From Escherichia phage UE-S5a, in the sequence record PP175015.1: a stretch of DNA of 64,000 bases; one strand, written 5' to 3'. The notes under the pieces are model-generated. The model searched no databases. It saw only the letters and a program-made list of their open reading frames with translations, and was not told the origin of the DNA. Every line of letters begins with the position of its first letter. Within the stretch, counting starts at the first letter, position 1. Positions 57,648-64,000 of this stretch are shown in pieces. The position numbers were made by a program, and so were the translations under genes.

Positions 57648-57852
57648 GGATTTGCTCCAGGTTATGAGCAGGAATAGGGAAGCATGGATAGTCACCGGTA
57701 GGGTCCAGTGTTACTGATACATGCAGTGTATTTGTCATTTGGGTTAACATCAGAGCAGCATTGAAATCGTCCTGGATACAGGCATATACAATGTCACCCT
57801 TCTCTCCCTCACACATTACAGGTGTGTCTTTGATACGGTATTTAGCAGGCAT
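57640..57852 (-). CDS. hypothetical small protein
   Basis: ORF 57640..57882; ATG 57852 has GGAGG RBS 4-5 nt upstream and lies just downstream of a terminator. Confidence 0.4.
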   Translation of the reverse strand: MPAKYRIKDTPVMCEGEKGDIVYACIQDDFNAALMLTQMTNTLHVSVTLDPTGDYPCFPIPAHNLEQIHD

Positions 57853-57880
57853 ATGCCCTCCTAAAAGAGTTAATAGAATC

Positions 57881-57906
57881 AAAAAAAGACCTCCCGGAGG
57901 AGGTCT
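57881..57906 (-). terminator. rho-independent terminator (minus strand)
   Basis: AGACCTCC-cgga-GGAGGTCT 8-bp stem followed on minus strand by TTTTTTTGATT. Confidence 0.65.
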
Positions 57907-57911
57907 TAGGT

Positions 57912-58151
57912 TTACTTACGACTTCCTTCTACGAAAAGTCGTATTTGTTTTTTCACTTCTTCTTTCTCACGTATTGCTTCGTAGTCACGAGCAAAGTAGT
58001 AAACACACCATAATCCAATTTCACTTACAAAGAACAGAATACTAGCTCGAATGAACTGCATATCTGTTTCTACTACAAAGGCAACTTTGTATGCGTAGGT
58101 AAGTGTTAATAGGGTACTAATTAGCATTGCGTACAGAGCTAGTTTTTTCAT
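57912..58151 (-). CDS. small membrane protein (two predicted TM segments)
   Basis: 79 aa; hydrophobic LALYAMLISTLLTLTYAY and ILFFVSEIGLWCVYYF segments. Confidence 0.4.
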   Translation of the reverse strand: MKKLALYAMLISTLLTLTYAYKVAFVVETDMQFIRASILFFVSEIGLWCVYYFARDYEAIREKEEVKKQIRLFVEGSRK

Positions 58152-59092
58152 TCAGTAATAGTCTCACCAGGAATTAACTTACGGAATTGGATAAAGTGAA
58201 GCAGGTTACCTGAGTACAGATTCCCTTCTTTATCCATGGATGTAACACCTTGTTCCCATGTAACTGGGTTCATGTTATTTACATACTTCTCACCAAGGTT
58301 CATAGGTGTAGCCTGATGTTCCGTTGGGGAAGCATGAATAGGTTGGTTTTCCACTAACTTAGCGAATAAGCCAAGGTCTTCCTCGATAGTAGATGGTCGT
58401 CCTTCGAAGTTGTTATAGGAAGCACGAGCACAGCGTGCAGCACTTACTTTGAGAAGTAGTCCATGCACTTCTGCATCACTTGGTTCATCGCGTGTAACTC
58501 GATTGCGTTTGCAGAAATTGTAAGCCCCAACACGGTCAATATGAGCAATATATGGCAGATGCCATTGCCCATATGGTAATGCTCTCGGTGTACTTTCTTC
58601 CTGTGCCTTACGCATTGCTTGAGCCAGTTCACGAATCTCTGGTTGTGCATCTTTGTGGTCACGCAGTCCATAGAAATTAGCCCAGCTGGTTGAAGTTACC
58701 ACTACACGAATATGCGTGAATGGTTCCAGAATACGGTTAACAATCTGCTTATGTACTTGCCCACGTCGTAGCTGTTCTGCATACACAGCAGCAGCAGATG
58801 CAGCGTTATCCCAGATAAACTTAGCATCCTCAATCTCCATAGGAGTGAGTTCTTCTTCTGCTTGCATACCTTTCTGGTTCTTGCCCCAGTGACTAGGCAT
58901 CACTGGTTCATTACGAACTTGTTCGATGAACTTAGCCGTGGGAATAGCACGACTGCTTGAGGCATTACGGTTGAATACACGGTGGGTCATAAACTCACTG
59001 TGAATGAATCGGGGATAAACCAATTCAAAGGTAGTAATACGAGTTCCTGTTTCTGGGTGAACGGAATCTGCAATGACAGTTGCCTTAATCAT
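58148..59092 (-). CDS. ThyX-like flavin-dependent thymidylate synthase
   Basis: 314 aa; THRVFNRNASSSR resembles the ThyX RHR...S motif. Confidence 0.45.
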   Translation of the reverse strand: MIKATVIADSVHPETGTRITTFELVYPRFIHSEFMTHRVFNRNASSSRAIPTAKFIEQVRNEPVMPSHWGKNQKGMQAEEELTPMEIEDAKFIWDNAASAAAVYAEQLRRGQVHKQIVNRILEPFTHIRVVVTSTSWANFYGLRDHKDAQPEIRELAQAMRKAQEESTPRALPYGQWHLPYIAHIDRVGAYNFCKRNRVTRDEPSDAEVHGLLLKVSAARCARASYNNFEGRPSTIEEDLGLFAKLVENQPIHASPTEHQATPMNLGEKYVNNMNPVTWEQGVTSMDKEGNLYSGNLLHFIQFRKLIPGETITE

Positions 59093-59535
59093 TAGAATGA
59101 CCTTAGATAGTTGGTGATACCACTACGGTTTTCTGTAATTTTCTTAACCTGAACATATACCAGCTTAAACTCACTACGGGGTAGTTCTTGTAATACTGCT
59201 ACACCTTCAGTAAGGGCCACAGAACACGCTACAGCGGTTTCTTTTTTAAAGGAGTATAAGTCTTCATACATGAGGGCTTCATACTCCCTGCGGAGCATAC
59301 AGAGAGCATCTCTTGCCTTATCACTTACTTCTTGTGAACCAGCAGACATAGCTAAGCTGTATATGATAAAGATTTGTTCAAAAACAAAGTCCAGTAATCT
59401 ATCAGGATTGTTAGTCCCCATGAATAATTTTGATGTGTAGGAACGGGCTTTACGGTTGAGTTCATACTCATCCTCTATGCCTTTATTGTAAAGAACAGGA
59501 TTTCGTTCCCTTTTCCGTAGGAATGGGATACGCAT
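59092..59535 (-). CDS. hypothetical protein
   Basis: 147-aa ORF translationally coupled to neighbours. Confidence 0.4.
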   Translation of the reverse strand: MRIPFLRKRERNPVLYNKGIEDEYELNRKARSYTSKLFMGTNNPDRLLDFVFEQIFIIYSLAMSAGSQEVSDKARDALCMLRREYEALMYEDLYSFKKETAVACSVALTEGVAVLQELPRSEFKLVYVQVKKITENRSGITNYLRSF

Positions 59536-59924
59536 TAGTATTTACTACCTCTTCTATACCAAGGGTAATGATGGGTAGTGCTCTTGCCTTTGAACACATC
59601 CTTAGTACGAGGATTCTTTTGTATTTGAGCCAGGTAAAGATGCATTTCGTCGTAACACGGACTAAGCCAGAACTTATCTATGATTCGGTCTACCTTAGAT
59701 TTCAGATGAGGTTCTGGTGGAATATATGAAGAAGTATTAAAAGGTTTTCTAGTAGTCCAATTCTTCATAATAATATTTTGCATTACTGCATAAACATCAG
59801 GACCAATTCCATTCTCTTCTACTTGATCATGGATAGTTTTACCCAAAGTAAGCATTGCAGTTTGTTCCAGCTTACTTAAGTCCAGTCCTTGCAGGATAGA
59901 CTTACCATTTTGTCTGCTTGACAT
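59535..59924 (-). CDS. hypothetical protein
   Basis: ORF 59535..60026 trimmed to ATG 59924 because a terminator hairpin occupies 59937-59966. Confidence 0.4.
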   Translation of the reverse strand: MSSRQNGKSILQGLDLSKLEQTAMLTLGKTIHDQVEENGIGPDVYAVMQNIIMKNWTTRKPFNTSSYIPPEPHLKSKVDRIIDKFWLSPCYDEMHLYLAQIQKNPRTKDVFKGKSTTHHYPWYRRGSKY

Positions 59925-59936
59925 AAGAGTACCTGT

Positions 59937-59966
59937 AAATAAAAAAGCCCACGGGTTAGGTGGGCT
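59937..59966 (-). terminator. rho-independent terminator (minus strand)
   Basis: AGCCCAC-gggttag-GTGGGCT stem followed on minus strand by TTTTTTATTT. Confidence 0.6.
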
Positions 59967-60041
59967 TGGGTTAGGAGATGGATAAGCAATGAGCTGGAAG
60001 TAACTTCCGCAAGCACCACTATGCAATGATGCTTAGGTTAG

Positions 60042-60320
60042 TTACTCTGCTTTACTGCCACCATTGGTTTGAACAACAGTTACGTTTGTAACTTGGTTCT
60101 GACCTTTGTTGGACAGTGACCAAATCAGTGCTACTACCCAGAAGACTAAAGACCAGCCTAATACAATATTAAGCACACCAATGCCCCACTTGGAGGCATG
60201 GCCTCGTGCAAAAGCAATGATAGTAGGGATGAGGTATACAGCTAATACAAACAACATAACAAGGATTGCTGCTAAAGATTCCATGATGGTTCCTATGTGA
60301 GGTTGAGTTAGTTTCTTCAC
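60042..60320 (-). CDS. superinfection-immunity-like small membrane protein (Imm family candidate)
   Basis: 92 aa, two TM segments; IIAFARGHASKWGIGVLNIVLGWSLVFWVVALIWSL resembles the Imm_superinfect signature as I recall it. Confidence 0.5.
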   Translation of the reverse strand: MKKLTQPHIGTIMESLAAILVMLFVLAVYLIPTIIAFARGHASKWGIGVLNIVLGWSLVFWVVALIWSLSNKGQNQVTNVTVVQTNGGSKAE

Positions 60321-60357
60321 AAATAGCCCAACTATGCTGGGCTATTTAGGCAGCTAC

Positions 60358-60567
60358 TTACTCAGCATCTTTGCTTGCAGGAGCAAGAGCTTTCTTCAGG
60401 TAATTGCGTACTGAACGATAGGTTTCTTTAGTATCCATAGCACTATCATTTACGAAAGTGATACGTGCACAATCAGACAGCGGAATCTGCTCCACTGCAA
60501 TTACATTTGCAGCATTAATGGTTACACGTACATCTGAGGTTGCATGAGTTACTTGAAATACTGACAT
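60358..60567 (-). CDS. hypothetical small protein
   Basis: 69-aa ORF. Confidence 0.35.
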   Translation of the reverse strand: MSVFQVTHATSDVRVTINAANVIAVEQIPLSDCARITFVNDSAMDTKETYRSVRNYLKKALAPASKDAE

Positions 60568-60597
60568 GTTGTTTCCTTAATTAAGCCGGATAGCCTT

Positions 60598-61104
60598 TTA
60601 TTTTGAAGGTCTAGCAGCTACTGGTTTGTTTTCCTGATTCTGATACTTACCATTGTAATTAGCAGGTTCTTGAACCAGATGAAATAATACTTGAGCTATC
60701 CCAGCACCAGCCGGGATATGCAATTTCTTACGACCGTGATAGACCAGTTCGAGGGTAAGATACCCTTTCCATCCTGGTTCTATTACGGTATTGAACACTG
60801 ATAATGCACGTCTTGCCCATGTAGACTTATCGTGAACGATTGCTACACAGGACGGGGACATGTTGAACTTCTCAATTGCTGAGGCCAAGGCGAACTTACC
60901 GAGATGGCGTGATACTTGATTTCCATCAACGACTTTCACCATTGGAATCAGCCCAAATAAGCGATAGAAGGTAATATCTTGTTTGATACGAATATCATAA
61001 CCAGCTTCACCTAATCCATAGCTTACACCATGCTCTGATACCTTATGGTCTGGGACATCCAGCAACTGAGATGAACGGTATAGAGAATTACCATTAACAA
61101 CCAT
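60598..61104 (-). CDS. dCTP deaminase-like protein (dUTPase superfamily)
   Basis: 168 aa; AGYDIR and EPGWKGYLTLEL motifs typical of dCTP deaminase/dUTPase fold. Confidence 0.55.
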   Translation of the reverse strand: MVVNGNSLYRSSQLLDVPDHKVSEHGVSYGLGEAGYDIRIKQDITFYRLFGLIPMVKVVDGNQVSRHLGKFALASAIEKFNMSPSCVAIVHDKSTWARRALSVFNTVIEPGWKGYLTLELVYHGRKKLHIPAGAGIAQVLFHLVQEPANYNGKYQNQENKPVAARPSK

Positions 61105-62279
61105 TATTTCATTCCTTTAGGGATATGAACTACCTCCCCAAAAGGTACGGTAGCATTGGGATTATTCAGAACACACCAGATGATAGGAATATCAAATGGT
61201 AATTCTTCCATTGGACGAACATACATATCGGAGAATATGATTGCAGCGGTTGGTTTATTCTTAATAATCCACTCGCGTACTGGTTCCAGGTTTGTACCAC
61301 CACGACCGGTAATCTTAATCTCTTCAAAAGTATCTTCTTCAGTGATGTCTATCTCTTCTTGGATAATATCGTCGAAGGTAATTAAGGACATCTTCTTAGG
61401 ATTGAACTGGCTCTTAACGTAGGCAACCTCTGAGTTAAAACGCAGAGAGTCAGCACTACTAATAGAACCAGATACATCCTCAAAGTAGGCTAAGTGTCGT
61501 AAGCGTCCTTCATCATCTTCCATGGAAGGTAGATAGATGTCAGTAAAACGACGGTTAGGTCTGGCCCACGTATAATGAGTATCGTCAATGTCGGTAAAGA
61601 AGTTCATGAGGACTTCCTGCCATGGAACCACTGGTTTAAGGAATTGGGTAATAACCTCTTCCATACGACCAGCACCCTTACCGGGCATCTGTCCACCAGC
61701 CATTTTCTGGCTCTGCATTGCTCGTACTACGTTGTTGACGACAGCACCCTGGGACTGCCCCGAAGTGGGGGATTTCATGTCGCCAGCAAGACCTGCTCCA
61801 GCACCCCCTGACGGCTTCTGCCTTTTCTGAGGGTTCTTCATCAGGTCATCGTAGATGTCTTCTTCGACCCATCCTTTATATTGAGGGTCTTTGCAAATAC
61901 CTTTATCAATGCCAGTGAACTTATAACCATCTTCTTCTAACTGAAGGTTAATGAAGTGGTCACACGCCTGGTTCCAGATTTCTGGGTCACGGCTTCCACG
62001 ACGGATGCCATGCAGATATGCCACATGCCAAAGTTCATGCATTAACACTGTTTCTCTGGCATCTGGACACATCCAGATAAAGAAATCTGGATTGAAGTGA
62101 AGTTCTATCCCATCAGTACATGCAGTGGGACAATTCTCACGTTTCCATGAGAACTTAAGACTACATAGTAATGAACCAAAGAACGCAGCACTGCGTCCGA
62201 GAAATGCGTTGGCCTGTATTCTATCGTATTCCCTCATTAACTGTTCATCAGTGAGGTTATGTGGTGGTATGTTATTCAT
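61104..62279 (-). CDS. VWA-domain protein with N-terminal HExxH metallopeptidase-like domain (DUF2201-type partner of MoxR ATPases)
   Basis: 391 aa; MHELWHVAYLH HExxH motif; C-terminal MIDAS-like DVSGS. Confidence 0.5.
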   Translation of the reverse strand: MNNIPPHNLTDEQLMREYDRIQANAFLGRSAAFFGSLLCSLKFSWKRENCPTACTDGIELHFNPDFFIWMCPDARETVLMHELWHVAYLHGIRRGSRDPEIWNQACDHFINLQLEEDGYKFTGIDKGICKDPQYKGWVEEDIYDDLMKNPQKRQKPSGGAGAGLAGDMKSPTSGQSQGAVVNNVVRAMQSQKMAGGQMPGKGAGRMEEVITQFLKPVVPWQEVLMNFFTDIDDTHYTWARPNRRFTDIYLPSMEDDEGRLRHLAYFEDVSGSISSADSLRFNSEVAYVKSQFNPKKMSLITFDDIIQEEIDITEEDTFEEIKITGRGGTNLEPVREWIIKNKPTAAIIFSDMYVRPMEELPFDIPIIWCVLNNPNATVPFGEVVHIPKGMK

Positions 62280-62755
62280 TAAGATGCTCCATGATTTATA
62301 TGGTAACCCAATAATTTTTCTGCTTCCTTTCTGGCTGTAATGGCCTCTTGTTTACTGTTAAACTTTCCTAAGTAAATTTGTTTACCATTATCATTTATAT
62401 GGGCAGCCCAGATTTTATCTCGGGTGTGCCAGTAAACTCCTGTCACACCTGATGTATTTGTAATTCTCTTGGTTTGATTTTTGCAATTAATCGAGTTTGT
62501 TACTAAACGGAAATTGCTTGGGTAATTATTTAATCTATTATGGTCAATATGGTCTACCTGCATACCGTCAGGAATTGGTCCAATCTCCATTTCATAAATT
62601 ATGCGGTGAACTAAATGCATTTTCTTGTTACATTTAACACGCAAATACCCACTGTTATCCAAACAACCGGCAATGGCACCTGCTTTTACGCAGCCCCTGC
62701 TTACTTTCCAGTAGAGGGAACCATTGCTATAAACAAATAGTTCATGCCAATTCAT
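62279..62755 (-). CDS. HNH homing endonuclease with AP2 DNA-binding domain
   Basis: 158 aa; HRIIYE...VDHIDHNRLNN HNH core plus GVTGVYWHTRDKIWAAHINDNGKQIYLGKFNSKQEAITAR AP2-like domain; inserted between the MoxR and VWA genes. Confidence 0.75.
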   Translation of the reverse strand: MNWHELFVYSNGSLYWKVSRGCVKAGAIAGCLDNSGYLRVKCNKKMHLVHRIIYEMEIGPIPDGMQVDHIDHNRLNNYPSNFRLVTNSINCKNQTKRITNTSGVTGVYWHTRDKIWAAHINDNGKQIYLGKFNSKQEAITARKEAEKLLGYHINHGAS

Positions 62756-63846: not shown

Positions 63847-64000
63847 TTAAGATTTAATACATGGGTAGGCTGTATCAATTGCCATCAGAACCATGTCTGA
63901 TGGTACTTTTACTGCATTAACCTTTCTGTCATACAGAATAATAGTGGCTACTTTGTCAAAGACATTTCCTAACTTCAAACTATCTGGTACGCAGTTCTTA
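63847..64000 (-). CDS. hypothetical protein (C-terminal part only; gene starts beyond window end)
   Basis: Minus-strand frame open from window end to TAA at 63849-63847. Confidence 0.3.
   Translation of the reverse strand, partial: KNCVPDSLKLGNVFDKVATIILYDRKVNAVKVPSDMVLMAIDTAYPCIKS

Follow-up and report, generated by a model that had tools for sequence, protein, structure and literature searches.

The window, by which is meant the whole 64,000-nucleotide stretch of Escherichia phage UE-S5a DNA analysed here, is collinear with phage N4 over gp24-gp49, and all of those genes lie on the minus strand. Over its region 57800-61200 it matches Escherichia phage UE-M3 (PP301342; Schitoviridae, Enquatrovirinae, Gamaleyavirus) at 100% identity and other G7C-like, N4-like podoviruses at 90-98%. 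One of the genes in this region, an ordinary one, encodes a small membrane protein of the T4 Imm family and already has an annotation in sister genomes. The UE-M3 record labels it (UEM3_054) a “hypothetical protein”. In G7C the ortholog, gp27.1, is annotated “immunity to superinfection; similar to Imm of JS98”; the orthologs in Bp4, St11Ph5, IME11, and ECBP1 are also annotated as immunity to superinfection, and “putative membrane immunity protein” is another label used among Gamaleyavirus orthologs. The practical outcome of the analysis is an annotation fix, in which the “hypothetical protein” UEM3_054 becomes the Imm-family gene named in G7C, Bp4, IME11, ECBP1, and other relatives.

The imm-like gene and its surroundings

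The imm-like gene sits in a fixed slot between homologs of N4 gp27 and gp28, with dCTP deaminase, the gp27 and gp28 homologs, gp29, and ThyX as neighbours. A PF14373 search of N4 finds no such gene, including at the gp27-gp28 slot. N4 gp28, which occupies the same slot, is unrelated to the imm-like protein; as a candidate counterpart it was rejected, having no PF14373 match and corresponding to the C-terminus of the next ORF (59535-59924). Because N4 lacks a PF14373 gene and gp28 matches that next ORF, the imm-like gene is an extra one, lying between the homologs of gp27 and gp28. The features of the locus are collected in the table.

Features of the imm-like locus, in order of transcription of the minus strand
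Feature	Coordinates	Strand	Evidence or remarks
Upstream hairpin between the gp27 homolog and the imm-like gene; 13-bp stem, 3-nt loop, no U-tract	60320..60348	-	Fold, alignments
5' leader, formerly taken as a 12-codon N-terminal extension	60285..60319	-	Near-invariant in six Gamaleyaviruses
imm-like CDS, 80 aa, Imm_superinfect family, G7C gp27.1 ortholog	60042..60284	-	PF14373 residues 16-57, phrog_1039, homologs, dN/dS, AF2 model
3'-UTR hairpin directly past the stop codon	60010..60035	-	Sequence differs among relatives, pairing kept
Small conserved GGAAG/CUUCC hairpin	59996-60008	-	Downstream of the 60010-60035 hairpin
Canonical intrinsic terminator; stem AAGCCCAC/GUGGGCUU, 7-nt loop, then UUUUUAUUU	59936..59967	-	Terminator scan; stem 59945-59967 plus U-tract

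The original prediction described a protein of 92 aa that includes the segment GHASKWGIGVLNIVLGWSLVFWVVALIW. The ORF, read from a GTG on the minus strand (60042..60320), is present, segment included, but its length is a longest-ORF artefact, and the true start is almost certainly the ATG at 60284. The 80-aa form is preferred because the 12-residue N-terminal extension is found in none of the 83 retrieved database homologs (44-86 aa), and all 27 aligned homologs begin at the methionine equivalent to ATG 60284. The GTG at 60318-60320 is GAG in phage ECBP1, and the G of this GTG is the last paired base of the 13-bp stem of the upstream hairpin. A Shine-Dalgarno-like AGGAA at 60290-60294 stands 5 nt ahead of the ATG, and the GenBank record of the identical phage UE-M3 places the start at the same ATG.

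The ORF downstream, 59535-60026 (UEM3_053), has a TTG start at 60026 in GenBank and runs across the intrinsic terminator stem at 59945-59967; in relatives the start is the ATG equivalent to 59924, which gives 129 aa. At its C-terminus (…HHYPWYRRGSKY) UEM3_053 matches N4 gp28, and this ORF is therefore the gp28 homolog; G7C lacks it.

At least 52 closely related records have the imm-like gene at this locus. Among N4-like metagenomic contigs of ~72-74 kb, homologs of only 56-60% identity occupy the identical slot, in the order gp25, dCTP deaminase, gp27, imm, two ORFs at the gp28/gp29 positions, and ThyX. Because homologs this divergent hold the same slot, the gene is not a recent acquisition, and its locus is fixed in a wider N4-like clade. 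The nearest relatives beyond the N4-like phages belong to myoviruses: Chaseviridae phage Mangalitsa (62% identity), Acinetobacter Obolenskvirus (53-55%), and the Moonvirus T4-likes (50%). A blastn search of 5,426 complete E. coli genomes with the imm-like gene gives no match, so these genomes hold no close prophage copy at the DNA level. In Mangalitsa, as in the window, a gene for a flavin-dependent thymidylate synthase (4823 onward) follows the Imm homolog (L012:2501-2755) at a distance of ~2 kb downstream, which may be either coincidence or a shared module.

At 62279-62755, an HNH_3/AP2 homing endonuclease gene (G7C gp24.1 homolog) lies between the gp24 ATPase and gp25 VWA-like genes, where N4 has no gene. 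Directly after ThyX, at 57912-58151, is the gene of a 79-aa hydrophobic protein (gp30.1 homolog, phrog_12633, no Pfam match); it is followed at 57886-57907 by a second strong terminator, symmetric on both strands, and is thus another small membrane-protein gene that ends at a terminator.

Family membership, structure, and conservation

The original prediction likened the protein to the T4 Imm family and named a Pfam PF14373 search as one check. That search is positive: the PF14373 (Imm_superinfect) match scores 61.9 bits against a cut-off of 27.9 bits (E=5e-17) and spans model positions 1-42 of 42. On the same model T4 Imm (NC_000866) scores 58.2 bits and Bp7 Imm 65.1 bits. In PHROGs, the protein falls in phrog_1039, “immunity to superinfection” (E=1.2e-29). 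With tblastn it retrieves 933 phage records at E<=1e-3, including annotated imm genes of T-even-type phages, and the matches to these genes sit at the imm locus of those phages. The best T-even-type matches, 50% identical over 60 residues, are in Citrobacter phages Moon and Merlin; identity is 36-38% to the Bp7 imm product and 26-30% to T4 Imm. Residues R27 and W44 of the protein align with T4 Imm R33 and W50. R27 is near-invariant among homologs, and W44 is replaced by leucine in some, including those of the Chaseviridae, so W44 is not universally required. At the level of sequence comparison the resemblance to Imm is far above chance, and the Pfam and PHROGs assignments, the tblastn links, and the conservation of R27 and W44 support the predicted family assignment, confirming a membership (PF14373/phrog_1039) that is not new.

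Other searches returned less. NCBIfam yields no match for the imm-like protein; T4 Imm is also unmatched there, so this negative is uninformative. PADLOC gives no match, and a PDB sequence search finds nothing at E<=10.

The two transmembrane segments proposed earlier correspond to two hydrophobic stretches in the 80-aa form, residues 3-26 and 34-57, with the loop RGHASKW between them. Positive charges lie in this inter-helix loop and one Glu at the N-terminus, a charge pattern compatible with an N-terminus-out orientation; the N-terminus of T4 Imm is placed on the periplasm side in work cited by a 2026 preprint (10.64898/2026.03.06.709160). An AF2 model built from a diverse 38-sequence alignment has a pLDDT of 83, exceeding 90 for 50 residues, with helices at 2-17, 19-26, 32-42, and 46-57 and a break at G43-W44-S45. 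The fold is confidently predicted as an N-terminal helix followed by a compact hydrophobic helical core that is interrupted at the conserved G43-W44 loop. Searched against BFVD with Foldseek, this model has superinfection immunity proteins as its six best matches (probability 1.0, E 8e-4 to 5e-2). A first AF2 model, from a shallow alignment of close relatives only, gave two long helices with a pLDDT of 70 and no significant Foldseek match, and is superseded by the diverse-alignment model. The 80-aa form is thus a small protein within the range of ~70-100 aa, with an N-terminal hydrophobic helix and a conserved hydrophobic helical core.

Compared with T4 Imm (83 aa), the imm-like protein matches the same PF14373 model, both proteins doing so full-length and above the cut-off, and is alike in size class and in how the hydrophobic helices are ordered. 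The two also have the R-G motif and the G/N-W loop in common. Both proteins come from virulent coliphages in which the gene lies among DNA-metabolism genes. The differences are in detail and in setting: in the alignment the N-terminal helix is 6 residues shorter than that of T4 Imm, and the motifs read RGHASKW and SLSNKGQ in the imm-like protein versus RGSKSTV and AGETK in T4 Imm. Unlike T4 Imm, the imm-like protein has no identified Spackle-like partner.

Gamaleyavirus orthologs, including G7C gp27.1, share the locus and are 93-100% identical over a 61-residue core; they also have the flanking hairpins and the terminator in common with UE-M3. Across codons 1-60 of six Gamaleyaviruses, pairwise dN/dS is 0.03-0.27 at dS of 0.15-0.38, and the gene is under strong purifying selection. 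Residues invariant in the clade include Y17, P20, R27-G28-H29, S31, W33, N39, G43, W49, W55, and the N59-K60-G61 motif. The C-terminal tail is variable and occurs as an 80-aa allele, carried by UE-M3 (…NQVTNVTVVQTNGGSKAE), and an 86-aa allele, carried by G7C. In Bp4 (L006:2271-2474) a 1-nt deletion just past imm codon 61, equivalent to ~60100 in the window, leads to a 67-aa product without the normal tail. Because of this truncation and the two alleles, the tail looks dispensable or modular.

Flanking hairpins and terminator

Gaps of at least 40 nt are few in the otherwise closely spaced minus-strand genes, and the imm-like gene, with its flanking structured elements, is therefore a structurally delimited cassette. 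The conserved layout is hairpin, gene, hairpin plus terminator. The original prediction had the gene flanked by minus-strand terminators, which holds on one side. Downstream lies the canonical terminator called by the scan, invariant in 6 of 6 relatives and immediately upstream of the N4 gp28-like ORF (ATG at 59924). The upstream hairpin has only three U's, and the terminator scan does not call it.

The upstream element is nevertheless a conserved structure. A 76-nt region containing it folds at -21.7 kcal/mol (z=-3.4), the hairpin is kept in relatives, with one compensatory G/C swap in a divergent N4-like contig (L014), and the G7C record annotates a stem_loop at its position. On the downstream side, the hairpin directly past the stop codon has 3 pairs with compensatory changes on both sides, and at this position two divergent N4-like contigs (L014 and L016) have hairpins of other sequence. 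The downstream terminator is also present in these two contigs, where the region folds with z=-5.2 and -5.4. An Rfam search of 59800-60700 gives only sub-threshold chance matches.

Independent regulation of the imm-like gene, which the original prediction drew from the flanking terminators, stands as a suggestion. A sigma-70 promoter scan, whose scope does not extend to N4-type middle promoters, finds no promoter on the minus strand from the upstream hairpin up to the gene. Inspection of all intergenic gaps for a promoter motif yielded only a loose ATTT[G/A], which is too weak to claim.

The hairpins and terminators of the minus-strand array tend to precede ATTT[G/A] directly, near 60318, 59936, 57880, 38230, and 37590 (examples are …GGGCTATTTGTG, …TTTTTTATTTACAGG, …TTTTTTATTTGAG, and …TCTCATTTGAGG); the motif could be a restart or promoter signal for a phage RNA polymerase, or a remnant of a U-tract. 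The upstream hairpin, read over 60322-60348, has the form AAATAGCCCA-GCATAGT-TGGGCTATTT in UE-M3, ECBP1, and IME11, and the same orientation with one loop change in Bp4 and St11Ph5. In G7C (L002:2443-2469) the loop is ACTATGC, the exact reverse complement, so that within perfect 10-bp arms the 7-nt centre has been inverted. The sequences suggest a natural template switch or loop inversion at a quasi-palindrome.

Proposed superinfection exclusion and its possible targets

The mechanism of the family is described for T4 Imm, which co-purifies with one part of the T4 tape measure protein gp29, its helical-bundle domain, in a complex resolved by cryo-EM; exclusion is reduced by R33A and W50A, and the model advanced is that Imm prevents the inner-membrane DNA conduit from forming (10.64898/2026.03.06.709160). 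The same preprint draws a mechanism-only analogy between Imm and small inner-membrane proteins proposed to stop the membrane insertion of an incoming pore-forming helical domain. N4 delivers its genome through ejected proteins: gp52 at the outer membrane, gp51 as a periplasmic tunnel, and the N-terminal domain of gp50, the virion RNA polymerase, in an inner-membrane complex, with the hydrophobic C-terminus of gp51 and the gp50 N-terminal domain located at the inner membrane (PMC13434306). Superinfection exclusion in N4-like phages is described as an uncharacterised system (PMC12642591). No experimental report on any Gamaleyavirus Imm was found in the literature, and neither a G7C lateral-transfer preprint nor a CRISPRi-ART paper contains anything on the imm-like gene.

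The tape measure protein, the demonstrated partner of T4 Imm, has no counterpart here. An Imm-encoding phage might be expected to carry a tape measure target as well; tblastn with T4 gp29 as query, full length or residues 205-518, gives only chance matches (E>=0.9) in the window and elsewhere in the UE-M3 genome. Because this is a podovirus without a tape measure protein, the T4 Imm mechanism cannot serve self-exclusion here. The absence lowers the case for a protein that works exactly like T4 Imm on its own kind and leaves family membership standing.

The best explanation, given a probability of roughly 0.55, is that the 80-aa inner-membrane Imm-family protein stops the entry of a second phage's DNA, with the N4-type ejectosome of sibling phages as its likeliest target. 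The gene would be transcribed together with the leftward replication and nucleotide-metabolism genes, by synteny the N4 middle class, and its product would insert into the inner membrane of the infected cell, where the DNA of the second phage would be halted. To cause the block, the protein would bind the part of the incoming phage's DNA conduit that inserts into the membrane, as T4 Imm does with the T4 tape measure protein. The least certain step is the target itself, which would be the inner-membrane end of the siblings' ejectosome, that is, homologs of the hydrophobic gp51 C-terminus and the gp50 N-terminal domain. This target is favoured because there is no tape measure protein, because siblings are the commonest secondary adsorbers, and because the gene is stably retained. 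Against this explanation, the only mechanism known for the Imm family uses a tape measure protein, and expression, judged from gene position, is probably later than that of immediate-early genes such as T4 imm. The myovirus affinity of the closest relatives outside the N4-like phages would also fit equally well with exclusion of foreign myoviruses.

The main rival keeps the family and the membrane block and redirects them: the protein would be aimed at coliphages with contractile or long tails that compete for the same cell (such as T-even and Chaseviridae types), binding their tape measure proteins, rather than at N4-like phages. It gains from the fact that a tape measure protein is the sole demonstrated partner of any Imm protein (10.64898/2026.03.06.709160), from the lack of one in UE-M3, from the homologs in Mangalitsa, Obolenskvirus, and Moonvirus, and from the conservation of R27 and W44. 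It is nonetheless judged unlikely. The near-invariant core and the retention of a single locus through long N4-like divergence suggest constant selection, which would come more reliably from siblings than from occasional foreign phages. Broad cross-family action would also be unusual for an Imm protein, given that T4 Imm is not known to act beyond T-even relatives.

A small membrane protein could instead have another role, such as a holin-like function in lysis timing, protection of the membrane against secondary adsorption, or some other part in host takeover, with no block to DNA entry. A likeness to holins has been ascribed to T4 Imm, which in addition influences both resistance to lysis from without and how stable lysis inhibition is (PMC6832632), and its over-expression impairs growth (10.64898/2026.03.06.709160). 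The imm-like gene, however, lies among nucleotide-metabolism genes (dCTP deaminase, ThyX) and away from the lysis genes, which in N4 are gp60-63 of the late region; G7C is reported to lack lysis inhibition (PMC12642591). Neither an endolysin nor a spanin gene is adjacent, and with this placement a holin identity was rejected. The residues on which exclusion by T4 Imm depends are moreover conserved, and such another role is improbable. Highly improbable, and largely refuted by selection and synteny, is the idea of a decaying passenger of horizontal transfer that is functionless in UE-M3. The Bp4 truncation and the fact that N4 manages without the gene would suit such a passenger, but the truncation leaves the entire PF14373 core intact, the dN/dS values across the six phages are low, and the locus is the same in the closely related records and in the divergent N4-like contigs.

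That an Imm-family protein, kept at one locus under strong purifying selection in podoviruses devoid of a tape measure protein, either jams the N4-type ejectosome or serves as an inter-family weapon is put forward tentatively, with the odds somewhat against it. If self-exclusion through the ejectosome is true, Imm proteins also jam a DNA conduit quite different from that of T4, the N4-type ejectosome (gp51 C-terminus/vRNAP N-terminal domain), and would give a handle on how it crosses the inner membrane. If only myoviruses bearing a tape measure protein are excluded, the gene would be a dedicated inter-family weapon of a virulent podovirus. Whether an Imm protein can block an ejectosome-type conduit would also bear on therapeutic cocktails that mix Gamaleyaviruses with other coliphages.

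N4 gp18 (Pfam PF17420 GP17, P22 gp17-like superinfection exclusion) is also an accessory exclusion-type gene, in the left arm of the N4-like genome; its family is unrelated to the imm-like protein, its locus is another one, and it has no detectable homolog in UE-M3. Over 63600-73728 of the UE-M3 record (L011), just past the end of the window, no homologs of N4 gp18, gp19-gp21, or gp23 are detectable, and four small unrelated ORFs are present there instead. Because UE-M3 lacks a gp18 homolog and N4 lacks a PF14373 gene, the exclusion-type accessory genes differ between the two sister genera. A 108-aa ORF that covers 63847-64000 and continues past the end of the window (L001:112-438) is annotated “Tai4” in UE-M3. 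Its match to Pfam Rap1a (type VI secretion amidase immunity protein) is sub-threshold, at E=0.002 and 19 bits against a cut-off of 27.7. Should the match be real, the product might act in the periplasm to inhibit cell-wall hydrolases, as a loose analogue of T4 Spackle.
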